Assembly: GCA_026396115.1 (NCBI GenBank)
Contig: JAPLXL010000005.1
Span: 66,967-130,966, forward strand
Direction: 5' to 3'
Origin: Candidatus Nealsonbacteria bacterium
GTDB taxonomy: Bacteria > Patescibacteriota > Minisyncoccia > Minisyncoccales > RBG-13-42-11
Length of the DNA stretch: 64,000 bases
Below the pieces are notes generated by a model, which saw only the letters and a list, made by a program, of their open reading frames with translations, had not been told where the DNA came from and searched no databases. The number at the start of each line of letters is the position of its first letter. The stretch's first letter is position 1. The position numbers and the translations under genes were made by a program. Of the stretch, positions 2,721-18,256 are shown one piece after another.

Positions 2721-2759
2721 AATCGCCAAGAAGGCGATTTTTTGTCTACGTGGTAGAAT
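2721..2759 (+). promoter_or_regulatory. junction repeat type A: hairpin + T-run + TGGTAGAAT (extended -10-like)
   Basis: aaTCGCCaagaaGGCGAttttttg...TGGTAGAAT. TAGAAT ends 6 nt before ATG 2766. Confidence 0.55.
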
Positions 2760-2765
2760 GGAGAT

Positions 2766-3494
2766 ATGCAAAATCCTATTTGTATTTCAACTGGCTGCGT
2801 ATATGAATTATCCGATGATAGGAACGATTTGATTGAAAAAATACGACAGTTTTCTCCGATAGGGATTATGGGAATTGAACTTTCTTTTGCTTATCCAGAA
2901 TACTTATTAAATTTTGACATAGATAATAACAATTTAGAGTACCTACAAGGATTAGAGTTTAATTCTATCCATGCTCCTAGGGAAAATATAACTTACGGCG
3001 AAAACAAAACAAGCAAAGAGGTTTTACAGAAAGTATCAGAATTATATAAACAAATAAATGCCAGAAATGTTGTCTTTCATGAAGAACAGATTGAGGACTA
3101 TAATTCAATAATAAGCAACAACTTTGTTTCATCAATAGAAAACGACGATTGGAGAAAACCAAGACACAATGTAGAGGATATTAAAAGTATTCTTGATAAA
3201 AATAAAAAATTAAAGTTCACCCTTGATTTTGCTCACGCTCTTTCAGTTTCCTCTTCAGACATAGCTGAATATATTAATTATTTTAAAGATAAGCTAATTG
3301 AAATTCATCTTTCTGTAATTGATAAAGATTTGGAAAAACACGATTTTTTACATAAATACGACAGCTCAGAGATAAGAAATTTACTTCAACCATTAAAGAC
3401 TGCTTTTGTTCCTGTAATTTTAGAAGCTGCCGTTTCTAACTTGGAAGAAATGAAATTTATTAAAAAGGAAATAGAGTATATAAAAAATTTGTAA
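2766..3494 (+). CDS. xylose isomerase-like TIM-barrel (sugar phosphate isomerase/epimerase family) protein
   Basis: 242 aa. Spaced IHAP / VVFHEE / LDFAHA / EIHLS strand-end motifs are typical of AP-endonuclease-2/xylose isomerase-like barrels. Weak call. Confidence 0.45.
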   Translation: MQNPICISTGCVYELSDDRNDLIEKIRQFSPIGIMGIELSFAYPEYLLNFDIDNNNLEYLQGLEFNSIHAPRENITYGENKTSKEVLQKVSELYKQINARNVVFHEEQIEDYNSIISNNFVSSIENDDWRKPRHNVEDIKSILDKNKKLKFTLDFAHALSVSSSDIAEYINYFKDKLIEIHLSVIDKDLEKHDFLHKYDSSEIRNLLQPLKTAFVPVILEAAVSNLEEMKFIKKEIEYIKNL

Positions 3495-3497
3495 AAT

Positions 3498-4094
3498 ATG
3501 AAAAAGACAAAAATAATTTTAGCTACAACATCTCCTTATCGTAAAGAAACATTTGGATATTTAGGTATCCCTTTTGAGGTAGAAGGAAGCAATACAGATG
3601 AATCTCAGGCAGAAAGAAATGACCCCGAAGAGTTAGTGAAGAACCTTTCTAAATTAAAGGCTGAGGCGGTTGCTAAAAACCATTCCGATGCTATCGTAAT
3701 CGGAATGGATTCTGTTACTTATTTTAACGATAAAATTCTTGAGAAACCAAAATCAAGAGAAGAAGATTTCCAAAGATTAAAAGAGCTTTCTGGAAATAAC
3801 CATCAATTCTACACAGGAGTTTATATAGTGAATACAGCTACAAATAAAGCGATTTCAAGAGTGGTTAAAACAGAGGTCTTTATGAGGAATCTTTCAGAAA
3901 AAGAGATTAACAAATATCTTGATGAAGACCCTCATTTTAACACCTATGCTTTAGGTTATGACCCCGTAAGGCACATTAGCTCGTCATTTGTCCAAAGAAT
4001 AGAAGGAAGTTATTATAATCTTTTAGGAGGTATTCCTTTGGAAACAATAGTTGAAATGTTAGGAGAAATAGGATATAAAGAAGAACAATTTTAA
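3498..4094 (+). CDS. maf: Maf-like nucleoside triphosphate pyrophosphatase
   Basis: 198 aa. Motifs: ILATTSPYRKETFGYLGIPF, VIGMDSV, YTGVYIV, GSYYNLLGGIPLE. Confidence 0.8.
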   Translation: MKKTKIILATTSPYRKETFGYLGIPFEVEGSNTDESQAERNDPEELVKNLSKLKAEAVAKNHSDAIVIGMDSVTYFNDKILEKPKSREEDFQRLKELSGNNHQFYTGVYIVNTATNKAISRVVKTEVFMRNLSEKEINKYLDEDPHFNTYALGYDPVRHISSSFVQRIEGSYYNLLGGIPLETIVEMLGEIGYKEEQF

Positions 4095-4106
4095 ATTAAC
4101 TCAATT

Positions 4107-4553
4107 ATGAAAATAACTATTTGTGGAAGTATCGCATTCCAAGATGAAGTGCTTTCTGTAAAAGAAAAATTAGAAAAATTAGGGCATGAGGTAAAGGTGT
4201 GGCCCCTTAAATTAGAAGATGGAAAAGGGCAATTGATTTCGGCCAAAGAATACTACAAGATACGGAAGATAGCAGCCGATGATGAGAAATGGGTTTGGGA
4301 TAGGAAAGCCGAAGCCGTCCTTAAGCATTTCGATAAAGTTTCCTGGTCGGATGCTATTTTAGTTGCGAATTACGATAAAAATAATGTTAATGGTTATATT
4401 GGGGGCAACACTTTAATGGAGATAGGTCTCGCTTTTTTCTTAAAAAAGAAAATCTATCTTTTAAATGAGATTCCAGAACTACCATATAAAGAAGAAATTT
4501 TAGGAGTAAGGCCTATTGTTCTTGGAGGTGATTTAAGTAAAATTACCAACTAA
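4107..4553 (+). CDS. nucleoside 2-deoxyribosyltransferase-like protein
   Basis: 148 aa. The MKITICGSIAF N-terminus and the GYIGGNTLMEIGLAF segment resemble the NDT/Rcl flavodoxin-like fold. Confidence 0.4.
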   Translation: MKITICGSIAFQDEVLSVKEKLEKLGHEVKVWPLKLEDGKGQLISAKEYYKIRKIAADDEKWVWDRKAEAVLKHFDKVSWSDAILVANYDKNNVNGYIGGNTLMEIGLAFFLKKKIYLLNEIPELPYKEEILGVRPIVLGGDLSKITN

Positions 4554-4623
4554 ACAGATTCTGACGTCGTTCACCATACGGAGCTAACGAAATATCGCCA
4601 AGAAGGCGGTTTTTTGGTAGAAT
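4553..4623 (+). repeat. junction repeat B+A (GATTCTGAC...GGAGCTAACG + hairpin + TGGTAGAAT)
   Basis: aacaGATTCTGACgtcgttcaccataCGGAGCTAacgaaataTCGCCaagaaGGCGGttttttGGTAGAAT. Starts at the stop codon of the upstream gene. Confidence 0.6.
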
Positions 4624-4680
4624 GAATCAACAAGGTTGAATAATATATTAAAAGTTTATTTGAATAAAAAATGAAGTAAT

Positions 4681-4935
4681 ATGGAAAAAGAAAAAATCAA
4701 AAAAGAAGAATTTAAAGTTTCTGGTGAAGACGTCGTTAAAAAAGTAAAGGAATTGATAAAAGAAGGAAATATCAGAAGAATTATCATCAAAAATGAGGAA
4801 AATAAGACTTTAGTTGAATTTCCCCTTACGATAGGTTTGGTTGGCGCTGCCCTATTGCCAGTCTGGGCGGCGATTGGTGCTATCGCAGCTTTAGTAGCTA
4901 ATTGTACAATCGTGGTCGAAAAAAGAGAAGGTTAA
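4681..4935 (+). CDS. DUF4342-like small protein with C-terminal hydrophobic helix
   Basis: 84 aa. FKVSGEDVVKKVKELIKEGNIRRIIIKNEENKTLVEFPLT followed by GLVGAALLPVWAAIGAIAALV. Confidence 0.5.
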   Translation: MEKEKIKKEEFKVSGEDVVKKVKELIKEGNIRRIIIKNEENKTLVEFPLTIGLVGAALLPVWAAIGAIAALVANCTIVVEKREG

Positions 4936-4940
4936 TTTCC

Positions 4941-4985
4941 AAAACAGGTTCTGACGTCGTCTGTTTCCCGGACATTTCACGTTCA
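4941..4985 (+). repeat. junction repeat type B
   Basis: aaaacaGGTTCTGACgtcgtctgtttcccgg, immediately after the stop of 4681..4935. Confidence 0.5.
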
Positions 4986-4988
4986 CTA

Positions 4989-5016
4989 TTGACTTTTTCT
5001 TTTCGAATAGTATACT
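4989..5016 (+). promoter_or_regulatory. sigma-70-type promoter for mgsA
   Basis: TTGACT, 16-nt spacer, TATACT. Confidence 0.5.
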
Positions 5017-5086
5017 CTTTATAGCTCTTTAAAATACTTAATTTTAGAGCGTGAGGTTTTTCTCAAAATTTAACAAAGGAGAATAA

Positions 5087-5467
5087 ATGATGCAAAAGAA
5101 AATTACAATAGCCTTGGTTTCTCATGATAAAAGAAAACTGAATTTGGTCGAATGGGTGAACAAAAATCGGAAAGAATTACAACAATTCGAACTTATTGGG
5201 ACTAGTGGTACGGCTAAAAAAATTAGCAAAATTACAGGATTAAAGGTGGAAGAGTTGGGACACGGACCAACTGGCGGGGATATAACGATTGCCTACAATA
5301 TTTTAGTTGGAAAGATAAATGTTCTGATCTTTTTTGTTGACACAGAGACAGCACATGGGCATGAACATTACATTCAATCCCTGATAAGAATAAGCATCAC
5401 TCAAAAAATACCCATTGCTTTGAACGATATCACCGCAGATTGCGTACTCCAATATTTATTGAAATAA
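5087..5467 (+). CDS. mgsA: methylglyoxal synthase
   Basis: 126 aa. Motifs: IALVSHDKRK, LIGTSGTAK, GPTGGDITIA, LIFFVDTETAHGHEH, IPIALN. AAGGAG RBS. Confidence 0.8.
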   Translation: MMQKKITIALVSHDKRKLNLVEWVNKNRKELQQFELIGTSGTAKKISKITGLKVEELGHGPTGGDITIAYNILVGKINVLIFFVDTETAHGHEHYIQSLIRISITQKIPIALNDITADCVLQYLLK

Positions 5468-5479
5468 TCATCACACATA

Positions 5480-5511
5480 TCAGGCCTGATATAGCTCAGG
5501 CCTGATTTTTA
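5480..5511 (+). terminator. rho-independent terminator
   Basis: TCAGGCCTGA-tatagc-TCAGGCCTGA followed by TTTTT. Confidence 0.6.
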
Positions 5512-5536
5512 AACTTTATAGAAGCATTAAATTTGA

Positions 5537-5565
5537 TTGACAAATTTAAAATAGAAGTATATAAT
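5537..5565 (+). promoter_or_regulatory. sigma-70-type promoter (repeated unit, copy 1)
   Basis: TTGACA-aatttaaaatagaagta-TATAAT. Nearly identical 30-nt block at 8394-8422. Confidence 0.6.
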
Positions 5566-5603
5566 AAATAATCTTAAAAATAAAAGAAAGGAGAGGAGTA
5601 AAA

Positions 5604-6128
5604 ATGAGTAAGTTCTTTAACATTTTCTTCAAGATGTTTCTTATAGCTGTGATAATATATTGTTTATACTCAATAATTATCGTCGTTGCCTCTTGGAATT
5701 ACAAGCCAGAAGATCAAATAATTAATAATCCTATTTTATCAGGGATAGAAACAGTTATCCTGGGTTCTGAAAAAGAATTACCATCCGAAAGTTCATTTGG
5801 AAAAGCTAAGGTATTTATAACTTTTAGGGAAGATGTATTGAAAGTATGGTTGTTTAATCCAAAAGTTTCAAAATGCTTTCTTTGCCAAGAGATAGAAGTC
5901 AGACCGAGTGGATATTTATCACGTGAAAAATCATGGCTATTATTTGTCGCACCACTTGATTTTTACATCAAAAGTGTTTCTTTAAAAGAAAATCTTTTAG
6001 AGATTAAATTAGGTATTTCAAAGGGCTTTGACAAATTTCAATTGGTACTTCTTGTATGCATGGCAGGGCTAATGGCTGTTTTATTAAAATCTTTAACTAA
6101 GAAACAAAATAAAAAGGTGCTGAGCTAA
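5604..6128 (+). CDS. hypothetical membrane protein
   Basis: 174 aa. N- and C-terminal hydrophobic helices. AGGAGAGGAG RBS. Confidence 0.5.
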   Translation: MSKFFNIFFKMFLIAVIIYCLYSIIIVVASWNYKPEDQIINNPILSGIETVILGSEKELPSESSFGKAKVFITFREDVLKVWLFNPKVSKCFLCQEIEVRPSGYLSREKSWLLFVAPLDFYIKSVSLKENLLEIKLGISKGFDKFQLVLLVCMAGLMAVLLKSLTKKQNKKVLS

Positions 6129-6170
6129 CGGCGCCTTTTTGATTAGTTAAAAAATGATAAATTGGTAAAA

Positions 6171-6201
6171 AATAGCCAAGCAGGCGGTTTTATGGTAGAA
6201 T
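6171..6201 (+). promoter_or_regulatory. junction repeat type A
   Basis: aatAGCCaagcaGGCGGttttaTGGTAGAAT. TAGAAT ends 7 nt before ATG 6209. Confidence 0.5.
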
Positions 6202-6208
6202 GAACTAT

Positions 6209-7336
6209 ATGATAAAAGAATTTAAAAAAGGAATATCTCTTCCTATAATAATCGTTATTTTAGCTCTCGTATTAATAGGCGGGGTGCTTATTTATTATTT
6301 TTTAATCAAAAATCCTGAATCCCCATCCTCGGGAGAAGAAACACTTATCAAAGTCGCCAGCCCGCAATCCAATCAGGAAATACAGAGCCCTTTTATAGTA
6401 AAAGGCGAAGCCAGAGGATATTGGTTTTTTGAGGCTACTTTTCCCACAAAACTGCTTGATGAAAATGGAAATATTATTAAGCAGACTATCGCCCAAGCCC
6501 AGGGAGAATGGATGACAGAGGATTTTGTCCCGTTTGAAGCCTTATTAACTTTTTCGGTTCCCAAAAATCAGAAAGGAACTCTCATTTTGGAAAAAGATAA
6601 TCCCTCGGGACTCCCCGAAAACGACGACGAAGTTAAAATTCCCATTCGTTTAAGCGCGACAGAAATACAAACTAATTTTTCCGAAACAGGAAATCTTGTA
6701 AAAGATAATCCCGGATTAAATCCCGGCGTTTGGTATTTGGTTTATGAAAAACCTGGGACTCCTGCTTTGAATGCCGAAATTAAATTTAACGAAGACAGTC
6801 TTTGTCAAATTGTCGCAGTTTCTCAATCTTGCCAGCAAACAGTACTTGAAGGAGGGGATAGAGTTGAGGTTACGGGTTGGGAAATAAACGGCATCTTGAT
6901 TGTTAAAAATATGGTGATACAAAAGACTTCCGAACAACTAAGGACGGTAAAATTGTATTACTATAATCCTAATTTGGATAAAGACAGCACTGGAAATATT
7001 CTTTGCAGCAGAAACGGCTTGGTAGCGGTGGAACGTGAAATTCCAATAACAAATACCCCTATCCAGGAAACAATAAGACTTCTTATTTCAGGAAATCTTA
7101 CCAGCGCAGAAAAGGCACAGGGCATTACTACCGAATATCCTTTACAAGAACTTAATCTAACGGCTGCATCATTAAATAGCGGCGTTTTGACGCTTACATT
7201 TGACGATTCCTACAACAAAACCGGCGGTGGTTCATGCCGGGTTGGTATTCTCTGGTTTCAGATTGAGGCTACTGCTAAGCAATTTCCCGAGGTTTCATCA
7301 GTACGCTTTATGCCCGAGGAATTATTCCAGCCATAA
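6209..7336 (+). CDS. secreted Gmad2 Ig-like + GerMN domain protein
   Basis: The track ORF starts at 6200, inside the TAGAAT box, so I prefer ATG 6209. Signal anchor. IKVASPQSNQEIQSPFIVKGEARGYWFFEATF (Gmad2-like). C-terminal KLYYYNPNLD...ETIRLLISG (GerMN-like). Confidence 0.6.
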   Translation: MIKEFKKGISLPIIIVILALVLIGGVLIYYFLIKNPESPSSGEETLIKVASPQSNQEIQSPFIVKGEARGYWFFEATFPTKLLDENGNIIKQTIAQAQGEWMTEDFVPFEALLTFSVPKNQKGTLILEKDNPSGLPENDDEVKIPIRLSATEIQTNFSETGNLVKDNPGLNPGVWYLVYEKPGTPALNAEIKFNEDSLCQIVAVSQSCQQTVLEGGDRVEVTGWEINGILIVKNMVIQKTSEQLRTVKLYYYNPNLDKDSTGNILCSRNGLVAVEREIPITNTPIQETIRLLISGNLTSAEKAQGITTEYPLQELNLTAASLNSGVLTLTFDDSYNKTGGGSCRVGILWFQIEATAKQFPEVSSVRFMPEELFQP

Positions 7337-7384
7337 ATCTACTGATTTTTTAGCAGCATAAAAGTAAATGTGTAGTTTTGACAA

Positions 7385-7416
7385 AAATCGCCAAGAAGGC
7401 GGTTTTTTGATAGAAT
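7385..7416 (+). promoter_or_regulatory. junction repeat type A
   Basis: aaaaTCGCCaagaaGGCGGttttttGATAGAAT. Confidence 0.5.
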
Positions 7417-7446
7417 AATATAAGAATTAAAATTAAACAAAATCAT

Positions 7447-7824
7447 ATGACAAAAATAACATTGTTTTGGTATATATTTTTAATTTTAAGTTTCATAGGT
7501 TTTTATTTAGCATACCTCTACGGGAAAAAAACTACAGAATTTAGGTGGAGTGAATATATAGCAATTATTATTATTCCGATTCTTTTTATTGTCTTCCTTA
7601 TTCTCTACTACGATTTTGCAATTCTAAAGCTGTTTATAGTAAGTGCCAGCATAGGTTTTGCAGCAGAAGGACTTATTGGTTTTGTATATGATAAGGTTCT
7701 CAATAGAAGATTGTGGACATATAATCGTCTAAGTATAAAAGGGTATACAAGTTATCTTAGTATTCCTCTTTGGGGAATTGCCGGGGTAATATTCTGGTTT
7801 ATCACTAAACTTGTTGGATTGTAA
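7447..7824 (+). CDS. multi-pass membrane protein (PF06541-like, putative ABC-transporter type IV family)
   Basis: 125 aa, 4 predicted TM helices. The AEGLIGFVYDKVLNRRLWTY segment resembles that family. Weak call. Confidence 0.45.
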   Translation: MTKITLFWYIFLILSFIGFYLAYLYGKKTTEFRWSEYIAIIIIPILFIVFLILYYDFAILKLFIVSASIGFAAEGLIGFVYDKVLNRRLWTYNRLSIKGYTSYLSIPLWGIAGVIFWFITKLVGL

Positions 7825-7908
7825 AATAGGTTCTAACAGTGTCCGGGAGCCAGGGTAGTAAGAGAATCGCCAATCAGCCTTCCAGCAAAGGCGATTTTTT
7901 GATAGAAT
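7823..7908 (+). repeat. junction repeat B+A
   Basis: aaaataGGTTCTAACagtgtccgggagcc...aaTCGCCaatcagccttccagcaaaGGCGAttttttGATAGAAT. TAGAAT ends 8 nt before ATG 7917. Confidence 0.6.
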
Positions 7909-7916
7909 AAAAATGT

Positions 7917-8393
7917 ATGAAAATTTATTTTGCGGGGTCAATTCGTGCTGGAAGAGTAGACCAAGAATCATATTTTAAAATAATTGAATATCTTAAAAAA
8001 TACGGACAGGTTTTGACCGAGCATGTTGGAGATAAGGATTTAACTGATTCAGGCGAGAAAAATATATCTGAAGGGGAAATTTATGAAAGAGATATGTCTT
8101 GGCTTAAAGAGACCGATGTTTTTATTGCTGAAATTTCAATCCCTTCTCTTGGCGTTGGTTATGAAATAGCAAAAGCTGAAGAATGGGGAAAAAGGATTCT
8201 ATGTCTTTGTAGGAAGCCAGAGGATGGAAAGAAAATATCTGCTATAATTAAAGGAAATAAGAACATAATCTTAAAAGAATACAATGATTTAGATGAGGCG
8301 TTTCAATATATTGATGATTTTTTAAACAAAACAGATTCTAACACCGTCCGTCCCTCGAAGCTAATAGCCCGAGCCTTTGGCTTGGGTTTTTGA
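7917..8393 (+). CDS. 2'-deoxynucleoside 5'-phosphate N-hydrolase (DNPH1/Rcl-like)
   Basis: MKIYFAGSIRAGRVDQESYFKIIEYLKKYGQVLTEHV and SIPSLGVGYEIAKAEEWGKRILCL closely follow the DNPH1 pattern (FCGSIRGGR...GKVLTEHV...PSLGVGYE). The last ~21 codons are encoded by a type B repeat. Confidence 0.75.
   Translation: MKIYFAGSIRAGRVDQESYFKIIEYLKKYGQVLTEHVGDKDLTDSGEKNISEGEIYERDMSWLKETDVFIAEISIPSLGVGYEIAKAEEWGKRILCLCRKPEDGKKISAIIKGNKNIILKEYNDLDEAFQYIDDFLNKTDSNTVRPSKLIARAFGLGF
8326..8392 (+). repeat. junction repeat type B, overlapping the 3' end of the DNPH1-like CDS
   Basis: aaaacaGATTCTAACaccgtccgtccCTCGAAGCTAatagcc... supplies the C-terminal tail KTDSNTVRPSKLIARAFGLGF and the stop. Confidence 0.55.
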
Positions 8394-8422
8394 TTGACAA
8401 ATTTAAAATAGAGGTATATAAC
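8394..8422 (+). promoter_or_regulatory. sigma-70-type promoter (repeated unit, copy 2)
   Basis: TTGACA-aatttaaaatagaggta-TATAAC. Confidence 0.55.
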
Positions 8423-8462
8423 ATAAACATCTCTAAAAAATAAAATAAAGGAGGTAAGTACA

Positions 8463-8873
8463 TTGACAAAGTTTAATAATGATTCAGGTTACTGCTACAT
8501 AATTCTCAGAGTGAAGCCGAATATCATAGAACTCAATGATGACAAAGGAATTTTCGGTATAGTAGAGGAGATTACATCGAGAGCTGTCGGTGCAGAACGA
8601 GCGAACATAGCTAAAATAATTTTGTGGGGTCCAGATATCCTTCATGCTCATAAAGAAACAGAGGAAACTTATATCTGTGTCAAGGGGGAAGGAGAGATTT
8701 TCCTTATTGACCAGATATTTGAATTCATTCCAGGTGTCAGGGTAATAGTCAGACCTGGAATTTTACACGCTGCTAGACCAAAAAACTGTGGAAAGTTGGT
8801 TTTCTTATGTGTATCTTCACCAGCTTTCAATCCTAAGGATGTGTATAATGATCCACGCGGTCGGGCATGGTAA
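8463..8873 (+). CDS. cupin domain protein
   Basis: 136 aa. TTG start 8 nt after AGGAGG. HAHKETEETYICVKGEGEIF...ILHAARP is the two-motif cupin pattern. Confidence 0.55.
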   Translation: MTKFNNDSGYCYIILRVKPNIIELNDDKGIFGIVEEITSRAVGAERANIAKIILWGPDILHAHKETEETYICVKGEGEIFLIDQIFEFIPGVRVIVRPGILHAARPKNCGKLVFLCVSSPAFNPKDVYNDPRGRAW

Positions 8874-8923
8874 GCATGGTAAATCGAAAAGATAGGAAAT
8901 GGAAGCAAAAAAACAATAAAAAA

Positions 8924-8957
8924 GCCGTCTTGAGTTTTGTACTCTTGACGGTTTTTT
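8924..8957 (+). terminator. rho-independent terminator
   Basis: GCCGTCttGAGT-tttgt-ACTCttGACGG followed by TTTTTT. Confidence 0.6.
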
Positions 8958-8972
8958 ATTTAAGGTTTCGTT

Positions 8973-9015
8973 AAATAGGTTCTAACATCGTTCCATAAAC
9001 ACAGCTACGATTTTT
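8973..9015 (+). repeat. junction repeat type B
   Basis: aaataGGTTCTAACatcgttccataaacacAGCTAcgatttttt. Confidence 0.5.
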
Positions 9016-9018
9016 TGG

Positions 9019-9047
9019 TTGACATTTTGCTTATTTTCTGGTAAAAA
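9019..9047 (+). promoter_or_regulatory. sigma-70-type promoter
   Basis: TTGACA, 17-nt spacer ending in TGg, TAAAAA. Confidence 0.4.
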
Positions 9048-9089
9048 ATAGATATGGCTTTTTAAAAATAAAATAGGAGGTGAGGGGCT

Positions 9090-9649: not shown

Positions 9650-9664
9650 ATTCTATATATAAAT

Positions 9665-11251: not shown

Positions 11252-11275
11252 GATAACATTGCCCTTTTAAAAATT

Positions 11276-11771: not shown

Positions 11772-11858
11772 ATATTCCCCTCTTTTTTCTTAACAAGTTT
11801 TTTTGAAAATAGTAATATATAGCATTAATCGTCATTTATTGTTCTTTTTAAAAATTGG

Positions 11859-11995
11859 GCCCCCGTAGCTTAGTTGACTAGAGCACACGTCTTTCAAACG
11901 TCAGTAGGACTAGAAAACTATCCGTCGGTTTAAATCAAGGGGGACTACTCGTTTTCTAAATCCGAGAGACCACTGGTTCAAATCAGTGCGGGGGT
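11859..11995 (+). tRNA. aberrant ~137-nt tRNA-like gene (chimera of two tRNA-like modules)
   Basis: A canonical 5' part reads GCCCCCG ta GCTT-agttgacta-GAGC a cACGT-cuUUCaa-ACGTc plus a GGAcTAG-aaaa-CTATCC arm. A second module is homologous to 9591-9632, with CUA in the anticodon position. This is followed by T arm CACTG-gttcaaat-CAGTG and CGGGGGT, which pairs with the 5' GCCCCCG. Confidence 0.4.
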
Positions 11996-12015
11996 TCAAT
12001 AACTTTTATATAAAT

Positions 12016-12039
12016 AGCGGGCAATTGCTCGCTTTTTTC
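12016..12039 (+). terminator. terminator hairpin (repeated unit)
   Basis: AGCGGGCAATTGCTCGCT + TTTTTT, identical to 9665-9688. Confidence 0.55.
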
Positions 12040-12072
12040 TTTGCCAAAATTGGAATAGAGTAGGGGTTTTAG

Positions 12073-12108
12073 AAAATCGCTAATAAGGTGGTTTTTTACA
12101 TGGATAAT
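12073..12108 (+). promoter_or_regulatory. junction repeat type A variant
   Basis: aaaaTCGCtaataaGGTGGttttttacaTGGATAAT. Confidence 0.4.
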
Positions 12109-12160
12109 GCAACCTTCCTTATTTTTTTGCGTTGTGATAATAATAAATTGTGCAATTTTT

Positions 12161-12718
12161 ATGGATATTTCGGAAGAAAAAAGAAAAATAGGAGAGGCCA
12201 AAAAAAATCCCCAGGCTTTCGGTCAGCTTTATGATGAATTCTATAGGCCGATTTTAAAATACATTCTAAGGAGGACTTCCGATATTGAATTGGCCCAGGA
12301 TTTGACCTCGCAAACATTCTTCAAGGCGTTAAAGGGACTGAAAAAATTCCGCTGGCAGAACATTTCCTTTTCGGCGTGGCTTTATAGGATAGCGACAAAC
12401 GAAGTCAATGATTTTTACCGTAGGAAAAATAGGATTATTCAAATAAGTCTGGAAAAGCTTCCCGAAATTCCGTCTCAGGATTCTGCAGACAGCGATTTAA
12501 AGCTGGCAGAGGCAGAATTGGAAAGCAAAAAAGAATTCAAAATACTCAGTCAGAAAATCCGAAAACTGTCGCTTATTTACCAGACGGTCATAACCCTTCG
12601 TTTTTTTGAGAAGAAAAAAATATCCGAAATATCGCAAATAGTCGGAAAATCCGAAGGAACGATAAAATCCCAGCTCCATCGCGCCCTTGAAACGCTGAAA
12701 AAGGAAATGGAAGGGTAA
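12161..12718 (+). CDS. ECF-type RNA polymerase sigma factor
   Basis: I prefer ATG 12161; the track start 12107 lies inside the promoter-like repeat. FGQLYDEFYRPILKYILRR, AQDLTSQTFFKAL, WLYRIATNEVNDFYR (region 2), ISEISQIVGKSEGTIKSQLHRALETLK (region 4). Confidence 0.8.
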   Translation: MDISEEKRKIGEAKKNPQAFGQLYDEFYRPILKYILRRTSDIELAQDLTSQTFFKALKGLKKFRWQNISFSAWLYRIATNEVNDFYRRKNRIIQISLEKLPEIPSQDSADSDLKLAEAELESKKEFKILSQKIRKLSLIYQTVITLRFFEKKKISEISQIVGKSEGTIKSQLHRALETLKKEMEG

Positions 12719-12768
12719 ATGCAACCTTTTTTAAAATCAGCCGTTGTAGTTGTAATAGGTATAACAAA

Positions 12769-13548
12769 ATGAAAACAGAAGAATTGATTAAAAAATTAGA
12801 AAATACAGATCTTCCCGAAATTGAAATCCAAAGTCACAAGACTTCTTTAAAGATGGCTCTTTTGGACTCGGATTATTTCAAAAAAACGGGCTCTTTTGAA
12901 ATTTTCCGCAGATATTTAGCTTTAACCGTCCCGGCCCTAGCAGTATTGGTAATCCTGGGAGTCGTCGTAATCAGCCCGAAACTGACCGAGGCAAAAGCCT
13001 TGAAGATTGCGAGAAATAATCCGGAAATAAATAGATTAATCGAAGAGAAAAAAATGGTTTTGAGCGACGTCAAGGTAAAGGACGGTAAAGCGTATATTCT
13101 GCTCAATTCGTCAAAAACCGAAAGCACAACTGGAATCAATGTCCAAAAAAATAACAATGCCTCTGAAGATATGGAAGGCGCGATAGTCGAGGTGGATCTT
13201 GATAAAAAAGAGGTTTCGCAGATAAATTCCATCAACAGCGAAGAGGTTGCGCCCTTGAATGATAAAGAAAAAGAATCGGCAGGAGAAATAGCAAATAGCG
13301 AGGAAGTTGTCGGCCAGATAGTGCCCAAGGAAGCGACAATTGAAAAAATTCAGTCGTCTCTGCCGAAAAAAATCCGATTGATAGAAAGAAACAATGTTAT
13401 TGAAGTAACTTCAGAAACAAACGGCGAACAAAAAGCCGAAGTTCATTATATATTGGATGAAAAAAAATGGGTCGTGAAGGTCAACTTAAATGAAAGAAAA
13501 GTGGAAGAAATCGAATACTCTTCCGATAATAACAAAGGTCGAGATTAA
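12769..13548 (+). CDS. single-pass membrane protein, possible anti-sigma factor
   Basis: 259 aa. One TM helix (LALTVPALAVLVILGVVVI) after a ~45-aa cytoplasmic N-terminus. Position directly after the ECF sigma gene. Confidence 0.35.
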   Translation: MKTEELIKKLENTDLPEIEIQSHKTSLKMALLDSDYFKKTGSFEIFRRYLALTVPALAVLVILGVVVISPKLTEAKALKIARNNPEINRLIEEKKMVLSDVKVKDGKAYILLNSSKTESTTGINVQKNNNASEDMEGAIVEVDLDKKEVSQINSINSEEVAPLNDKEKESAGEIANSEEVVGQIVPKEATIEKIQSSLPKKIRLIERNNVIEVTSETNGEQKAEVHYILDEKKWVVKVNLNERKVEEIEYSSDNNKGRD

Positions 13549-13583
13549 ACAAATTTTAAAATAATGAATCAATGAAAATAAAC

Positions 13584-14267
13584 ATGAAAAAATTTTTACT
13601 GGGCTTGGCAATTTTTACGACTTTGGTATCGGTCGTAGTGGTACAAGCCAAAAATAATAACAGCGATGATGAAGATATAAAACCCAATACAGCCAACGTC
13701 TTGAAATCCGACTTGAAGCAGAGGATTCAAATCAACGAAACATCAGCCGGGAACATGGTCTGGCTCACGGGGGCGAAAATAACCGAGATTTCCGGGACAA
13801 CGACTACCAACCTTATAAAAGTAAAGGTATTCGGCCAGGACTATAAGGTTCAGATTGCCACGAGCACCAACGTGGTCAGACAATACTGGGGGAAATCGGC
13901 AATTGATTTATCGGAGTTTTCGGTGGGGGATATTATAAACGTCTACGGGACTCTCGATACGGCCGATTATTTCCTGGTTCACGCGAAAACCGTCCGCAAC
14001 GTTTCGATTCAAAAGCTTCACGCGGTTTTCACTGGAAAAATTCTGAGTATTGCTTCGTCTACGGGTTCCTTTACTATGGAAGCGAAAAGAAACGGAACAA
14101 GCTCGCTTTTGGTTAACACCGATTCGAATACAAAAATCTATCAGGGAAAAAACCTGAAAAGTTTTTCCGATTTGCAGGTCGGTATGAAAGTGATGGTTCG
14201 CGGAATCTGGGATAAAACAATATCAAAGATTCAGGCGCTACTTGTAAGAATGCAGCCAGCCCACTAA
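13584..14267 (+). CDS. secreted hypothetical protein
   Basis: MKKFLLGLAIFTTLVSVVVVQA signal peptide. Two similar beta-rich halves. Confidence 0.45.
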   Translation: MKKFLLGLAIFTTLVSVVVVQAKNNNSDDEDIKPNTANVLKSDLKQRIQINETSAGNMVWLTGAKITEISGTTTTNLIKVKVFGQDYKVQIATSTNVVRQYWGKSAIDLSEFSVGDIINVYGTLDTADYFLVHAKTVRNVSIQKLHAVFTGKILSIASSTGSFTMEAKRNGTSSLLVNTDSNTKIYQGKNLKSFSDLQVGMKVMVRGIWDKTISKIQALLVRMQPAH

Positions 14268-14307
14268 AGTGGAGAATTCCGAGGACTAAACGAAAATTGA
14301 TAGGGAA

Positions 14308-14338
14308 AATCCGTCCCTCTTTACGGGGCGGATTTTTT
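14308..14338 (+). terminator. rho-independent terminator
   Basis: AATCCGTCCC-tctttac-GGGGCGGATT + TTTTT. Confidence 0.65.
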
Positions 14339-14440
14339 GTATAGTGCTGGAAAATAAAAGATTTTTAAATTTTTATTTGAATTTAGGCAAAGATGGAGGC
14401 GTCTCACAATCTATGAATAAGAAGCCAATGTCGCATAATC

Positions 14441-14513
14441 CGTATTGGTTCGAATCCTACCCACCGAGCCAAACAAAAACCACCTTTTTATTGAGGCGGT
14501 TTTTTGGTAGAAT
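14441..14513 (+). repeat. junction repeat B+A (T-loop-like variant)
   Basis: cgtattGGTTCGAATCCtacccaCCGAGCCAaacaaaaACCACCtttttattgaGGCGGTtttttGGTAGAAT. TAGAAT ends 8 nt before ATG 14522. Confidence 0.55.
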
Positions 14514-14521
14514 AAAGAAAG

Positions 14522-15604
14522 ATGTTAATTACGCAAGGTAAAACTAATTGGAAATTTATACTAATTGTAGTTATTCTAGCCGCTATTGTTGGCGGGGGAG
14601 CTTTATGGTTTTCAGCAAAAAAAGAGTTACCTTATCAGCCGCCTGAAATCAAGAAAGTAGACGAAATCGCAAATTGGAAAACTTATAGAAATGAAGAGTA
14701 TGGATTTGAAATAAAATATCCGGAAAGTTGGGAAGTATTAAATAATAATCCTTATGGTGAGATACTGGATTTTTCTTTTCGCGATAAAAAGTATGAGGGA
14801 TCATTTGAATGGCCAGGATTGCGTATTACAGACAAGGACTTAGTAGGCGAGTTTAGTGATACTAAAATTCCCTTAAGGGTTTTTAAGAAAGAAGAGACAG
14901 AAAATGAAGTGATAAAAATCTACTTTGATGAAAGGGAAAGAAGATTATATGCAACTTGTGCTCTTTATCTTGAACCAGCCATAATTGAAACCTGCAATCA
15001 GATGCTTTCTACTTTTAGGTTTTTAGAAGAAGACACAGAGGATGAAACTGCTGACTGGAAGACATACAGGAATGAAGAATATGGGTTTGAAGTGAGATAC
15101 CCAATAGATTGGGAAATGCAAGAGAGAGGGGATGGTGTTAACTATGCTGAGCTTTTTTATCTTGAAAAAGAAGTAGGAGATTCGCAGTTTCAATTCATAG
15201 ACTTAGGAGTAGACGGTGACTGGTATCAGGTAACACGGATGCATTCAGAAATCATAATAGATCCTACAGATGCAAATGATCCAGATTCATGTCTTTCTAA
15301 TTTTGTAAATGTCCAAAGGGGAGAAATTGATTTTGCCGGACGAAAAGCCATTTCTTGGAAGCTTTTAACCGAAGAGGGTAATGTTTGGAGATCACATATT
15401 AAAATTTTAAATCCTCCCAGAGATTGGAAGGAAAATAATTGGATTCTAATCAACTATCTTATTTATGACACAGGGGAAAATTGTAAGATTCCAGTCAGCT
15501 ATTGTTCAAGGTTTGAGGGAAGAGTAAAGGTTTTCTGTAACACAGATAAAAAAGATAGCGAAATCGTTAACCAAATGCTTTCTACTTTTAGGTTTTTAGA
15601 CTAA
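14522..15604 (+). CDS. membrane-anchored protein with internally duplicated domain
   Basis: 360 aa, N-terminal TM. ANWKTYRNEEYGFEIKYPESWEV...CNQMLSTFRFLE is repeated as ADWKTYRNEEYGFEVRYPIDWEM...VNQMLSTFRFLD. Confidence 0.6.
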   Translation: MLITQGKTNWKFILIVVILAAIVGGGALWFSAKKELPYQPPEIKKVDEIANWKTYRNEEYGFEIKYPESWEVLNNNPYGEILDFSFRDKKYEGSFEWPGLRITDKDLVGEFSDTKIPLRVFKKEETENEVIKIYFDERERRLYATCALYLEPAIIETCNQMLSTFRFLEEDTEDETADWKTYRNEEYGFEVRYPIDWEMQERGDGVNYAELFYLEKEVGDSQFQFIDLGVDGDWYQVTRMHSEIIIDPTDANDPDSCLSNFVNVQRGEIDFAGRKAISWKLLTEEGNVWRSHIKILNPPRDWKENNWILINYLIYDTGENCKIPVSYCSRFEGRVKVFCNTDKKDSEIVNQMLSTFRFLD

Positions 15605-15680
15605 AAATAGGCTCTAAATCTACTAATCTTTCCCTAATTCTTCTCCAATCTAAGGTTCTGAATGCGTCCAATAGGGGAAG
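15604..15680 (+). repeat. junction repeat type B (subfamily shared with 16661-16712)
   Basis: ttctccaatctaaGGTTCTGAAtgcgtccaataggggaag, versus ctcttccaatcaatGGTTCTAAAtgagtcctgtagggggag. Confidence 0.5.
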
Positions 15681-15686
15681 CTACTC

Positions 15687-15715
15687 TTGACTTTTAATTT
15701 AAAGGGTGTTATTAT
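15687..15715 (+). promoter_or_regulatory. sigma-70-type promoter
   Basis: TTGACT, 17-nt spacer, TATTAT. Confidence 0.45.
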
Positions 15716-15770
15716 ATAAACAAGCCTGAAATAGGGTTGTTATTTAAAAATGAAATGAGGTGTTTTAAAA

Positions 15771-16127
15771 ATGTCTGAATTAAAGAAGAAAGCTTGGCAA
15801 GAACTCTTGAAGAAAGAACCAACCGATAAAGAATTGATTTATATTATCAAGTATGTGGAATCCCTAAGAGAGGAAGCTGGGCAAAAACTCTTAGAGAGAG
15901 ATCCAAGCAATGAAGGATTGATTTGTATCATGGGGCATGTATGGTCTCTAGCGGAAGAAGCTTGGAAAAAATTCTTAGAGCAAAATCCAACTAATGATGA
16001 TCTGCGTGATATTATTTTGCGTGTATCATCTTTATCATCTTTAAGAGATAGAGCTGGGAAAAAACTCTTGGAACAAAATCCAAGTAATGATGATCTATGT
16101 TTTATTATGCAACATTGTGACTTTTAA
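15771..16127 (+). CDS. alpha-helical repeat protein (four ~29-aa repeats)
   Basis: Repeating LLxxxPxNxxLxxIxxxVxSLxEEAxxK units (HEAT/PBS-lyase-like). Confidence 0.5.
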   Translation: MSELKKKAWQELLKKEPTDKELIYIIKYVESLREEAGQKLLERDPSNEGLICIMGHVWSLAEEAWKKFLEQNPTNDDLRDIILRVSSLSSLRDRAGKKLLEQNPSNDDLCFIMQHCDF

Positions 16128-16195
16128 AGAAGGTGAATGAAAGAGATGAATATTAAAAGGTAATAAAATGAATGAATTTTGGAAAGGAGTTAATA

Positions 16196-16546
16196 ATGAT
16201 AGTAATTAAAGTTTGGTGTCTTCCATCTGATCAGAGCGAAGATGATTTGAATCGTCTTCATCAGGCGATTGTGAAAGCTGCAGTATCTTTTCCCGAACTT
16301 TGTCTTCAAGACGAAAACGATATGACTTGTCTTTTTCCAGCCGATCTTATGAAGTATGGATTGGGAGAAGAAATTATCGTTGAAATTGATGGCTTGCCTG
16401 ATATGCTTTGGAAAAACCGAACAGTTCGTGAGCAACTTGCTCGGTGTGTTGGGGAAAGTGTTTCAGCTCTTTATCCCAGGGCAAAAGTTGAATGCTCTGT
16501 TAGAGAATTCAACCCTTCACAAGGAGTTTGGACTCAGAATAAGTAG
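16196..16546 (+). CDS. hypothetical protein
   Basis: ATG 16196 follows GGAAAGGAG. 116 aa. Confidence 0.45.
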   Translation: MIVIKVWCLPSDQSEDDLNRLHQAIVKAAVSFPELCLQDENDMTCLFPADLMKYGLGEEIIVEIDGLPDMLWKNRTVREQLARCVGESVSALYPRAKVECSVREFNPSQGVWTQNK

Positions 16547-16554
16547 TGAAGAAT

Positions 16555-16595
16555 AAATTCCTCGTAGAGAAGTATTTCTACGAGGAATTTTTATT
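16555..16595 (+). terminator. rho-independent terminator
   Basis: AAATTCCTCGTAGA-gaagtatt-TCTACGAGGAATTT + TTT. Confidence 0.7.
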
Positions 16596-16660
16596 TAATT
16601 TTATATTATAACTACTTTTTTTTGACTAATAAACATTAAATTACTTATTTCTTCCTTTAT

Positions 16661-16745
16661 TCTCTTCCAATCAATGGTTCTAAATGAGTCCTGTAGGGGG
16701 AGTTTGCTTCAAAGAATTGCCAATCAGGCGGTTTTTTGGTAGAAT
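16661..16745 (+). repeat. junction repeat B+A
   Basis: ...caatGGTTCTAAAtgagtcc...gaaTTGCCaatcaGGCGGttttttGGTAGAAT. Confidence 0.55.
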
Positions 16746-16787
16746 GATAATGTACGGATTAAAATAAAAGGTAATTATTTTATCAAC

Positions 16788-17672
16788 ATGAAAGGTTACG
16801 TAACAAATATTGAAAAAAAGACATTGGAAAACGATAATTTCCGCGAGGTTCTCTATACTTCAAAACATAGTCAATTAGTGCTCATGACCCTTAGGCCAAA
16901 AGAAGAAATCGGAATGGAGGTTCATCCAGATAATGACCAATTTTTCCGTTTTGAAAAAGGTCAGGGTAAGTGCATAATTGATGGTAACGAGTATGAGTTA
17001 AGAGATGGAGTGGCAGTAGTTGTTCCAGCAGGCGCTCAGCATAATATAATCAATACCTCTAACACAGATGAGCTAAAGTTATATACTATTTATTCACCAG
17101 CTCATCATAAAGATGGTATTGTCCGACCAACCAAGAAAGAAGCCGAAACAAATGAAGCAGAATTTGATGGTGCTACTAGTGAATATGCTATTACTAGAGA
17201 ATATACTAGTGAATTTAAGTATTGTCCAAGTTGCGGCAGTAAGATCGTCACCGACAATTCTTTTTTCTGCTCGCATTGCGGGCGTAAACTCCCAAAAATG
17301 GAGAATACGGGCGACTTTAATATAGAACAAGCAAGTTTTGATACTAATGAATCATTCCAACCAAAGGGTGGTGGTCAAGTCCAATCTATTCGTGGAAGGC
17401 CGGTTAAAGGGCAAAATTCTCTAGTAGGAGCAATACGAGCCCTACTGTTTATAGCATTTATTATAGGTATAATATTTTTTGTAAGACAATTTTTGGGCGG
17501 AGGCAAAGTCAGAAATTGTATAGCTTCCGTTTTAGGAAATCCTCCAGAATGCAGCGATTGTGATAATGTGTCTAGAAATACCACTATGAATGGTAGATCT
17601 ATAGGCAAGTGTATTCCTACCCATGTAGAAGGGGATATGTGTAATCTTGATTGCGGAGGGACGAAATATTAG
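16788..17672 (+). CDS. cupin - zinc ribbon - TM - Cys-rich C-terminal fusion protein
   Basis: N-terminal cupin (GMEVHPDNDQFFRFEKGQG...VPAGAQHNIIN), then YCPSCGSKIVTDNSFFCSHCGRKL, then TM (ALLFIAFIIGIIFFV), then a Cys-rich tail. Confidence 0.6.
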   Translation: MKGYVTNIEKKTLENDNFREVLYTSKHSQLVLMTLRPKEEIGMEVHPDNDQFFRFEKGQGKCIIDGNEYELRDGVAVVVPAGAQHNIINTSNTDELKLYTIYSPAHHKDGIVRPTKKEAETNEAEFDGATSEYAITREYTSEFKYCPSCGSKIVTDNSFFCSHCGRKLPKMENTGDFNIEQASFDTNESFQPKGGGQVQSIRGRPVKGQNSLVGAIRALLFIAFIIGIIFFVRQFLGGGKVRNCIASVLGNPPECSDCDNVSRNTTMNGRSIGKCIPTHVEGDMCNLDCGGTKY

Positions 17673-17705
17673 GTTTGTATTGCTTGAATTGGAAAATTCT
17701 CAATA

Positions 17706-17782
17706 AACTAAGTTCTAATATTGTACCATCCTCGGAGCCAAACAAAAACCGCCTTTTTATTGAGGCGGTTTTTTGGTAGAAT
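17706..17782 (+). repeat. junction repeat B+A
   Basis: aactaAGTTCTAATattgtaccatCCTCGGAGCCAaacaaaaACCGCCtttttattgaGGCGGTtttttGGTAGAAT. Confidence 0.6.
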
Positions 17783-17793
17783 GAGGTAATAAT

Positions 17794-18192
17794 ATGGAAA
17801 AAAAGATTAACAGATTTGTATATTGGACACCAAGAATTTTGTCAATCATCTTTATACTATTTTTAGCTATGTTCTCTTTAGATGTTTTTGATATGAAATT
17901 AGGTTTCTGGGAAACAGCATTGGGGTTATTTATGCATAATATCCCGGTATTTGTTTTGTCGATTGTTCTGTTAATATCTTGGAAACGCGAGATTGTCGGA
18001 GGAATTGCTTTTAATTTAGCCGGAGTATTATATGTTGTAATAATATTGATGAATATGTTGAGGAATTCATTCGAATGGTATATGGTATCTTGGATCCCAA
18101 TAGTTTCTGGACCAGCATTTCTTATAGGTGTTTTATTTATTATCAATTGGCGCAAAAAACAAAATAATCAAAAGGATGCGTCTACAAAATAG
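17794..18192 (+). CDS. multi-pass membrane protein, hypothetical
   Basis: 132 aa, 4 hydrophobic helices. Confidence 0.5.
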   Translation: MEKKINRFVYWTPRILSIIFILFLAMFSLDVFDMKLGFWETALGLFMHNIPVFVLSIVLLISWKREIVGGIAFNLAGVLYVVIILMNMLRNSFEWYMVSWIPIVSGPAFLIGVLFIINWRKKQNNQKDASTK

Positions 18193-18256
18193 GTTCTAAC
18201 GTCTTCCGTTCCTCGGAGCTACGAAAATCGCCAATCAGGCGGTTTTTTGGTAGAAT
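18187..18256 (+). repeat. junction repeat B+A (best-preserved copy)
   Basis: aaataGGTTCTAACgtcttccgttCCTCGGAGCTAcgaaaaTCGCCaatcaGGCGGttttttGGTAGAAT. Confidence 0.6.

Follow-up and report, generated by a model that had tools for sequence, protein, structure and literature searches.

We analyzed a 64,000-nucleotide (nt) stretch of the genome of a Candidatus Nealsonbacteria bacterium (contig JAPLXL010000005.1, positions 66,967 to 130,966; hereafter the window), in which a roughly 70-nt sequence recurs at gene junctions between 2.7 and 18.3 kb. This repeat is made of two separable modules, and both of them are found throughout Parcubacteria/Patescibacteria genomes. The right module can be read as an intrinsic terminator joined directly to an extended -10 promoter, TGnTAGAAT, and the left module is a 34-nt box that derives from the 3' end of tRNA-Asn. 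Our preferred reading, to which we give a probability of about 0.55, is that the modules delimit arrays of gene units, anchored on the tRNA-Asn-like boxes, where each unit would carry its own terminator and leaderless promoter.

Composition of the junction repeat

The window has a GC content of ~34%, and the genes between 2.7 and 50 kb are nearly all on the + strand, as are all module copies given below. In an exact-protein look-up, exact copies of the window proteins were found only in short contigs of one sample (SRR20698646), and these contigs end at the repeats. The 19-mer GGCGGTTTTTTGGTAGAAT has five exact occurrences in the window, and script mapping with up to three mismatches gave ten sites, from 4605 to 18256. 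With up to one mismatch TGGTAGAAT matched 29 times as compared to 17.7 expected, a number that was reached in none of 100 shuffles. The repeats had been noticed by a model that saw the letters of the window and a list of its open reading frames (ORFs), hereafter the sequence-only reading; the 19-mer mapping, the shuffles and the box model described below confirmed that the copies exist and that they are far beyond chance.

The right half, i.e. a hairpin, a T-run and TG(G/A)TAGAAT, is present at 11 places in the window, starting at 2718 (with a longer spacer), 4594, 6172, 7387, 7866, 14480, 16716, 17753, 18227, 36511 and 45183. One more site, at 12072, has the hairpin and lacks TAGAAT, so the earlier count of 12 hairpin copies comes to 11 and a variant. 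For the left half we used a model built solely from boxes of other genomes, at a threshold of E ≤ 0.006. This gave nine window matches, all on the + strand between 4554 and 18221 (starting at 4554, 4944, 7827, 8331, 8976, 15653, 16676, 17710 and 18190, with E from 2e-06 to 6e-03), where ten copies had been counted before; the copy at 15610, as well as a tRNA-like copy at 14441, is weaker and was missed by the model. The two halves are adjacent at six junctions only (4554-4623, 7826-7908, 14441-14513, 16673-16745, 17708-17782 and 18189-18256), and the claim that nearly every gene is followed by the composite sequence was thus overstated. The boxes at 4944, 8331, 8976 and 15653 each have an ordinary TTGACA-N17-TATAAT promoter downstream, with a long leader and a strong Shine-Dalgarno sequence, and in the 2.7-18.3 kb region the right halves at 2718, 6172, 7387 and 12072 stand without a box.

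The halves are independent in other genomes as well. A right half lies within 110 nt downstream in only 34 of 91 boxes, leaving 63% of the boxes without one, and a box lies within 90 nt upstream in only 34 of 196 right halves. Furthermore, the -10 sequence varies between genomes (TAAAAT, TAGGAT, TAAGAT, TAAATT) with the box unchanged, which excludes a Correia-type element as well as an attC site. The sequence-only reading had proposed one ~70-nt element of the Correia or miniature inverted-repeat transposable element (MITE) type, with terminal inverted repeats TTCTAAC/TAGAAT, an internal terminator and an outward promoter. It is true that GTTAGAA, the reverse complement of TTCTAAC, matches GGTAGAA at six of seven positions and that the composite is found at the six window junctions, but the likeness arises because one sequence is a T-loop and the other a -10 hexamer. 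The left half is accounted for by the tRNA T-loop, the right 'repeat' varies in the manner of a -10 without compensating changes, and across the lineage the right half is also placed behind real tRNA genes. In fold predictions for six junction sequences ending at the T-run (TAGAAT left out) the box and the hairpin were separate, with ~20 nt of the box unpaired and no long palindrome. Since the halves mostly occur apart, we give the single-element model next to no weight. Membership of the MITE or Correia families was likewise rejected, as the distance from box to -10 ranges over 29-97 nt and does not define a unit of uniform length. Correia elements and MITEs are, like the junction sequences, short intergenic repeats able to supply terminators and promoters, whereas the junctions lack terminal inverted repeats, a uniform unit and a target-site duplication.

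The right module and the tRNA-Asn-like box

In sequence and predicted fold the right module has the features of an intrinsic terminator, a GC-rich stem-loop followed by a U-run. The complementary 5' arm of the hairpin is nearly always found upstream of the fixed 3' arm, with a loop of 4-10 nt, and because the 5' arm shifts with the loop length it is the hairpin itself that is conserved and not a fixed -35 box. The stem sequences differ while the architecture is kept (TCGCC/GGCGG, CCGCC/GGCGG and, in another genome, TTCAAGCC/GGCTTGA). In the predicted fold the hairpin is lengthened by pairing of an upstream A-tract with the T-run, a form of bidirectional intrinsic terminator, which is in line with the terminator proposed by the sequence-only reading.

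The T-run is followed by TGn abutting the -10 hexamer, and the start codon is placed at the expected transcription start, as in an extended -10 promoter for leaderless transcripts. Bacterial RNA polymerase usually starts ~7 nt past the -10 hexamer, and as the ATG is found there the genes are expected to be expressed as leaderless mRNAs. Among copies from other genomes with enough downstream sequence (130 sites), an ATG that begins an ORF of 40 codons or more lies 5-10 nt past TAGAAT in 62 (48%), as compared to 5.3% of random positions in the same loci, and the distance peaks at 6-8 nt. The seven window cases noted earlier, with an ATG 6-11 nt past TAGAAT (2766, 6209, 7917, 14522, 17794, 36547 and 45221), were all found again and fit this pattern. 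The earlier suggestion of an extended -10 for leaderless transcripts therefore holds for the placement of TGnTAGAAT, and this spacing implies that mRNAs downstream of the right module would be leaderless.

To see how far the module extends we scanned one genome per species, in total 596 Gb, with the degenerate 19-mer GGCGGTTTTTTGRTAGAAT. This gave at least 119 loci, where we estimate ~9 by chance. Among the matches listed nearly all are metagenome-assembled genomes (MAGs) of Patescibacteria/Parcubacteria, from Nealsonbacteria, Paceibacterota, Staskawiczbacteria, Portnoybacteria and Minisyncoccales and including three complete genomes; the few matches in other phyla are at about the level expected from chance or mis-binning. 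In related genomes the module is also found directly 3' of genuine tRNA-Asn, tRNA-Gln and tRNA-Asp genes. The sequence-only reading had set its proposal against that of a generic terminator/promoter, and for the right half, being lineage-wide and also placed after tRNA genes, a generic terminator/promoter is what we found.

Leaderless-mRNA promoters are best known in Actinobacteria, Deinococcus and archaea. Here as there the -10 ends 6-8 nt before the ATG and leaves no room for a Shine-Dalgarno sequence. In contrast to those promoters, the extended -10 of the right module is fused to the T-run of the preceding terminator, at least 19 nt are conserved across genomes, and within one genome the promoters coexist with classical TTGACA/TATAAT promoters and Shine-Dalgarno leaders. 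Leaderless promoters as such are a known kind; what is unusual here is the fusion to a terminator and the strong conservation. A separate leader motif, AAAGGTCGnAnAATTAAttgAGAAATAA, was observed shortly before start codons in the window (28769, 30104, 34850, 37451, 37820 and 43636) and in many other loci, and in non-leaderless genes it lies 8-15 nt past many TAGAAT promoters.

The box has the consensus ACAGGTTCTAACATCGTCC-N7-GGAGC(C/T/A)A over its 34 nt. In the 58 distinct boxes that we collected, in the window as well as in the fetched loci, the 19-mer is conserved, the heptamer is variable and GGAGC is again conserved. Genuine tRNA-Asn(GTT) genes of related genomes end in GTAGGTTCGAGTCCTACCGCCGGAGC and are followed by the right module at a box-like distance; the tRNA-Asn of E. 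coli also has GGAGCCA as its 3' end. In the alignment the match with tRNA-Asn begins at the 5' strand of the T-stem and reaches the CCA end, and past the T-loop the box has five bases more than the tRNA (TTCTAA[CATCG]TCC vs. TTCGAATCC). Its layout is the T-stem 5' strand, a T-loop with the 5-nt insertion, TCC-N7-GGA, the discriminator G and a CCA-like end. The earlier idea that the box stems from the T-loop and acceptor end of a tRNA was supported by this alignment with real 3' ends, and more specifically for tRNA-Asn, from which the box derives.

Three subtypes of the box recur across genomes and all three are present in the window. Type 1 is ACAGGTTCTAACATCGTCC, type 2 is CCAATCnAAGGTTCTAAAyGyGTCC and type 3 is CCAAGTTCTAATATTGTACCATCC; type 2 is near-invariant in the sample and has an upstream CTCTCC strand that can pair with GGGGGAG. 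With the box model 106 further boxes were found in ~0.93 Mb of fetched loci. The boxes are co-oriented with the genes and placed just past stop codons, as 66 of 91 have a same-strand ORF end within 100 nt upstream and 29 of 91 within 20 nt, vs. 8 of 91 when the strand is flipped.

A role of the box as a folded, structured RNA was considered and rejected. Rfam searches over 1-20 kb, at gathering thresholds and at E ≤ 5, left the repeats unmatched, and the only match above gathering score in this interval was an odd tRNA at 11859. Pairing of GGUUCU with GGAGCC is possible in 90% of the box copies, and this helix showed no covariation beyond shuffles (307 of 500 score as high). Type 1 boxes are unable to fold like a tRNA because they lack the 5' acceptor strand. 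In a comparison with REP/RAYT repeats, which combine a short imperfect palindrome with an IS200-like RAYT gene in the genome, neither the consensus nor the folds of the box showed a palindrome. The box as an activator site was rejected as well, given the spacing of 29-97 nt from box to -10.

Two other elements were observed at the same junctions. A minihelix, GGCTAGTGCTCGGTTCGAGCGACCGAG, with a T-loop-like loop follows genuine tRNA-Asn genes and many boxes of related genomes, and precedes the terminator/promoter module (L050 7611-7650, L056, L051, L089 2335-2365 and other loci). A second junction box, CAAAATTTAGGCCGAAGTTGAG, is unrelated to tRNA and lies, like the tRNA-like box, at the stop codon; it is found in the window at 33679, 34516, 35310, 36479, 38419 and 40491 as well as in L032, L072 and other Parcubacteria genomes, and the copy at 36479 directly precedes the hairpin and -10.

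Gene units and their junctions

Comparison of the window with related genomes showed where the gene order breaks. A contig of another MAG, L076, is 98% identical to positions 6188-8363, a stretch of three genes, with unrelated sequence on both flanks. The left break, at 6188, lies in the T-run/-10 of the right module at 6172-6201 (without box, ATG at 6209), and the right break coincides with the box at 8331-8364. The promoter module in this comparison has 35-40 nt of perfect identity between the genomes. The box at 8331 is inside the DNPH1-like ORF (nucleoside deoxyribosyltransferase family, 7917-8393), in which one nt of a T-run is deleted as compared to L076, be it through a recent frameshift or through an error in sequencing. 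The L076 ORF stops at a TAA inside the box, and the window ORF runs through box and hairpin because one T is lost from the T-run. The tail of ~21 codons, which had been taken as supplied by the repeat copy, comes from this deletion.

A Joint Genome Institute (JGI) contig, L126, shares with the window, at 99% identity, a stretch that begins with the hairpin of the right module at 16716-16745 (TTGCCA-N17-TAGAAT with TG), contains a cupin gene and ends where the type 3 box at 17708-17741 ends (E 2.4e-06, the best model match), so that these two modules are the 5' and 3' boundaries of the cupin unit. Beyond 17741 the contig continues, directly past GGAGCTAC, into the promoter that in the window is found at 15685, and the unit order is therefore permuted. 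The parental boxes at this junction have ~6-8 nt in common (AGCTAC). In the window the corresponding promoter (TTGACT, at 15687) follows the type 2 box at 15651-15684, where an upstream CTTCTCC can pair with GGGGAAG. In the complete genome OY969803 a gene for a 110-amino-acid (aa) protein is present twice with 97% identity, and the identity ends at the box start ACAGGTTC. Cupin homologues from outside the lineage (L123-L125, 39-44% GC) have no boxes and are uninformative.

The unit upstream of the cupin unit carries a 124-aa gene (16172-16546) and ends with the type 2 box at 16673-16706. Relatives of this gene were found in 16 metagenome loci, and none of their neighbours there match any of the 28 window proteins compared (2.7-22.5 kb). 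In five genomes, the window included, the homology consists of the gene, its own terminator, a ~90-nt spacer and the type 2 box, and stops at GGGGGAGC. Upstream the context differs. In L127 the hairpin/promoter of the unit begins a few bases past a genuine tRNA-Asn; elsewhere it begins past a box, which is of type 1 in L128 and L131, of type 2 in L129 and L138 and of another class in L139. The spacer itself, from the gene terminator to the type 2 box (16546-16706), is conserved in the window, L129, L133, L135 and L138, so that the type 2 element has a length of at least 60-125 nt and may hold a weak promoter or a small RNA.

Over the homologous gene pairs of all fetched loci, the downstream neighbour was conserved in 1 of 50 with a box between the genes vs. 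36 of 250 without (Fisher p = 0.016), in a small test where paralogues and orthologues are mixed. In another locus, L081, eight boxes, most of them near-identical, were found within 8 kb between pairs of small genes. The sequence-only reading had suggested an array of exchanged cassettes, and L076, L126, the 124-aa unit and the adjacency test bear out that units are exchanged at the junctions. The comparison of strains that it had called for gave the same picture, as near-identical relatives lose synteny at the modules and the gene order is not fixed.

In the arrangement that we favor the right module would be an intrinsic, often bidirectional terminator, with a GC stem of 5-10 bp that has an A-tract upstream and a T-run downstream. 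This T-run would lead straight into TGnTAGAAT, and transcription would start ~7 nt past the -10, which in about half of the copies is the A of the ATG. The box would mark the 3' boundary of units of one or two genes, past the stop codon and in gene orientation, so that a unit would comprise terminator/promoter, gene(s) and box. Such units would be placed directly downstream of a genuine tRNA-Asn or an existing box, building co-directional arrays in flexible parts of the genome, and the strain and species comparisons show that they change neighbours exactly at the modules. Most likely, the boxes would be attachment or crossover points for insertion and exchange. The agent may be a site-specific recombinase encoded elsewhere in the genome, or it may be short-homology recombination after DNA uptake, via the 35-40 nt of identity in the promoter module.

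Several results weigh against this arrangement. A Pfam scan found no recombinase domains in the window ORFs at 0-50 kb, and no recombinase family was among the 25 most frequent families shown for 102 ORFs of 27 multi-box loci. Motifs of tyrosine and serine recombinases gave no matches in ~1,200-1,600 ORFs, using crude regular expressions that divergent enzymes may escape. That neither an integrase nor a canonical attC is present, as first noted for the window, was thus also our result for the ORFs at 0-50 kb and for the box-rich loci. Breakpoints are found at both edges of the box, at the 5' edge for the window vs. L076 and for L081 vs. L102 and at the 3' edge in L126 and the 124-aa unit, and because of this a single defined crossover point fits poorly. 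The distance from box to unit varies over 6-23 nt and the hairpin is sometimes absent, whereas integron boundaries are more precise. Besides the size and mixed composition of the adjacency test, it should be noted that MAG and metagenome contigs can be chimeric at repeats.

A more specific form of the favored arrangement, which overlaps it, is an integron-like cassette system, where a recombinase encoded elsewhere recognises the box (GGTTC...TCC-N7-GGAGC) and would insert and excise circular cassettes of one or two genes beside tRNA-Asn or beside any box. We regard this as possible, in a tentative way. The 124-aa unit stands behind tRNA-Asn, type 1 and type 2 boxes, which have too little common sequence for RecA-type recombination, and its homology ends at the same box nucleotide in five genomes; the L126 junction with its short AGCTAC overlap speaks for the same mechanism. 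Moreover, TCC-N7-GGA is in our reading a small dyad with a 7-nt spacer, like the core site of a tyrosine recombinase, and the L081 array of toxin-antitoxin-like pairs resembles chromosomal integron arrays. Yet a recombinase was not found in ~1.2 Mb of box-rich sequence, breaks occur at both box edges, the unit boundaries are not nucleotide-exact, and circular intermediates and empty sites were not observed. Another explanation is that the modules act solely in regulation or as RNA elements (with a terminator, a promoter and, in the 3' untranslated region, a tRNA mimic for processing or stability) and that breaks fall by coincidence at conserved patches of gene boundaries, through ordinary homologous or illegitimate recombination and selection for intact units. 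Breakpoints at either edge would be expected from homology-driven events, the 35-40 nt of perfect identity in the promoter module is enough for RecA, and no recombinase was found nearby. The boxes are also gene-polar, where a right module follows they lie between stop and hairpin and would be transcribed, and the GGUUCU-GGAGCC pairing can form in most copies. However, this helix is without covariation, type 1 boxes have no tRNA-like fold, and the box-promoter spacing varies by at least ~10 nt, unlike what an activator site would lead one to expect. Gene and box are separated in L081 by a terminator of its own, and the box types are too dissimilar for homologous recombination to have placed the 124-aa unit behind each of them. 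We consider the purely regulatory explanation unlikely.

The boxes could also be decayed attL/attR scars of integrase islands or prophages that repeatedly entered tRNA-Asn, with the integrases and most genes since lost. tRNA-Asn is a classic integration target, and a genuine tRNA-Asn heads some of the arrays (L127 and L043). Scattered partial tRNA repeats have been described in the tycheposon islands of Prochlorococcus (bioRxiv 10.1101/2020.12.28.424599). Against such scars, the derived consensus with its 5-nt insertion is common to many genome families, where neutral scars should decay independently, the units are intact, regularly spaced, 0.4-2.5 kb long and have their own promoters, and integrase fragments were not found. 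A box does abut phage genes in the viral contig L122, but this contig has 52% GC vs. an AT-rich 110-nt end and may be a chimera. Altogether, scars of this kind seem improbable to us. The L122 match (14695-14819, IMG/VR) was the only box match in a viral contig; its AT-rich end, with a terminator and a perfect box, meets the 52% GC DNA directly past GGAGCC, the terminase, portal and capsid genes are elsewhere on the contig and an integrase is not beside the box. It is either an integration junction or an assembly chimera, and it was given no weight.

The arrays thus combine traits of several known systems, of which the closest are tRNA-anchored islands with partial-tRNA repeats and arrays of integrons or of clusters of attC sites lacking integron-integrases (CALIN). 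The high-pathogenicity island of Yersinia is an example of an asn-tRNA island. Prochlorococcus tycheposons are tRNA-anchored islands with scattered partial-tRNA repeats (bioRxiv 10.1101/2020.12.28.424599). As in such islands, blocks of accessory genes are bounded by direct repeats of the tRNA 3' end, some arrays in relatives begin with a genuine tRNA, successive insertions displace older ones inward, and strains differ greatly in these regions. The repeats here are similar to the 3' part of the tRNA from T-stem to CCA end, the 14441 copy with normal length, and tRNA-Asn genes are found at L127 384-456 and L043 3616-3691 and not in the window. Unlike those islands, the units here are single genes or pairs of 0.4-2.5 kb, each with its own terminator and promoter, and the box is not a copy of the resident tRNA but a derived consensus with a 5-nt insertion, found in many genera. 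No integrase was found in or near the arrays, nor beside a tRNA-proximal att site in the loci searched.

With integrons and CALIN the arrays have in common the co-directional order, one or two genes per unit including toxin-antitoxin-like pairs, a short conserved site at the end of each unit and units that are found in different contexts; as in CALIN, there is no adjacent integrase. In contrast to both, the site is tRNA-derived, without R''/R' core sites and without an imperfect palindrome. Most units examined have their own TGnTAGAAT or TTGACA/TATAAT promoter, unlike the mostly promoterless cassettes of integrons that depend on a common promoter (Pc), no IntI homologue was found and the boundaries are less exact. 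Searches for an array head with IntI, attI and Pc found no recombinase domain or motif in the window ORFs at 0-50 kb or in the box-rich loci. The attC core sites were tried and rejected, as neither TTCTAAC nor GTAGAAT matches at more than 6 of 7 positions, the R' side would be the freely varying -10 and 63% of the boxes have no right half; a long imperfect attC hairpin was rejected too, box and terminator being apart in the six folds (TAGAAT excluded). A literature search on leaderless promoters, integrons and tRNA-linked islands in bacteria of the Candidate Phyla Radiation (CPR) gave nothing specific, and a description of the modules was not found.

Further features of the window and significance

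The remaining module copies show how the two halves are combined along the window. The right module at 2718-2759 consists of the hairpin ATCGCCAAGAAGGCGAT, a T-run, the longer spacer and TGGTAGAAT, with a 6-nt gap to the ATG at 2766. A type 1 box at 4554-4587 (E 2.1e-05) abuts the TAA stop of ORF 4107-4553 and is followed at 4594-4623 by terminator hairpin, T-run and TGGTAGAAT, while the box at 4944-4972 is followed by a TTGACT-N16-TATACT promoter (4989-5016) and a Shine-Dalgarno leader. The right module at 7387-7416, TGATAGAAT, has no box. At the next junction the box (7826-7850, E 0.0046) is shortened in its 3' part and the right module (7866-7908, ATG 7917) has an enlarged hairpin loop, and the box at 8975-9008 has a TTGACA promoter downstream at 9019. 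The repeat search gave the variant hairpin and T-run without TAGAAT at 12072-12098. At 14441-14472 there is a fragment of a tRNA 3' end, GGTTCGAATCCTACCCACCGAGCCA, of normal tRNA length, although a complete tRNA is not present here; it is followed at 14480-14513 by a right module with hairpin variant B, AAAAACCACC...GGCGGTTTTTT (ATG 14522). Variant B is also found at 17753-17782 (ATG 17794), past the cupin unit. The type 1 box at 18189-18222 (E 5.1e-06) overlaps the TAG stop of ORF 17794-18192, and the search for hairpin, T-run and -10 placed the adjoining right module at 18227-18256. Outside the 2.7-18.3 kb region, right modules lie at 36511-36540 (ATG 36547), with a different junction box (D5 family) upstream, and at 45183-45212 (ATG 45221).

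Other repeats and insertions were also seen. The tRNA at 11859-11996 (Rfam 31 bits) has the anticodon loop CUUUCAA and a ~67-nt insertion in the variable region, and was missed by ARAGORN. A second copy of its 3' ~60 nt, joined to a different acceptor end, lies at 9590-9650, and a third, T-arm-like end is found at 11385-11420; a terminator repeat, D13, follows each of the three tRNA ends (9656, 11451 and 12007). Genes for a peptidase S51 and TspO and a 77-aa ORF lie between the tRNA ends and look like a repeat-flanked insertion, with no integrase. The 5' end of radC is present three times, as a 27-codon stub (9757-9835), as a fusion to another ORF (18937-19000) and as the intact gene (21782-22477); genes for an AbiEii toxin and a serpin lie between the second and third copies, which suggests insertions into the start of radC. 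The region 19655-33613 is a defence island. It encodes an AbiEii toxin, a SIR2-like protein, a GmrSD-like nuclease and two methylases, one of them paired with a Res helicase in a type III restriction-modification system and the other on the opposite strand.

CPR bacteria are abundant, mostly uncultivated and have very small genomes, and almost nothing is known about their promoters, translation initiation and gene gain and loss. The modules offer three handles for annotation: transcription starts and leaderless start codons are predicted by the 19-nt terminator/promoter signature, flexible gene units are marked by the 34-nt box, and the arrays are linked to tRNA-Asn as their anchor. Even without a recombinase, the modules would explain why assemblies break at the junctions and how single genes move between lineages. 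There is a real chance that an undescribed cassette-recombination system is behind the arrays. That it is a gene-cassette system of the Parcubacteria as a lineage, with the tRNA-Asn box in the role of attC and a putative recombinase elsewhere in the ~0.6-Mb genomes, is a thought we offer with reserve and hold to be rather doubtful. Were a dedicated recombinase to act on the boxes, the arrays would represent a new cassette platform with a logic comparable to that of integrons, and such a system would provide a large part of the gene flux at strain level in organisms otherwise thought to be poor in mobile elements.

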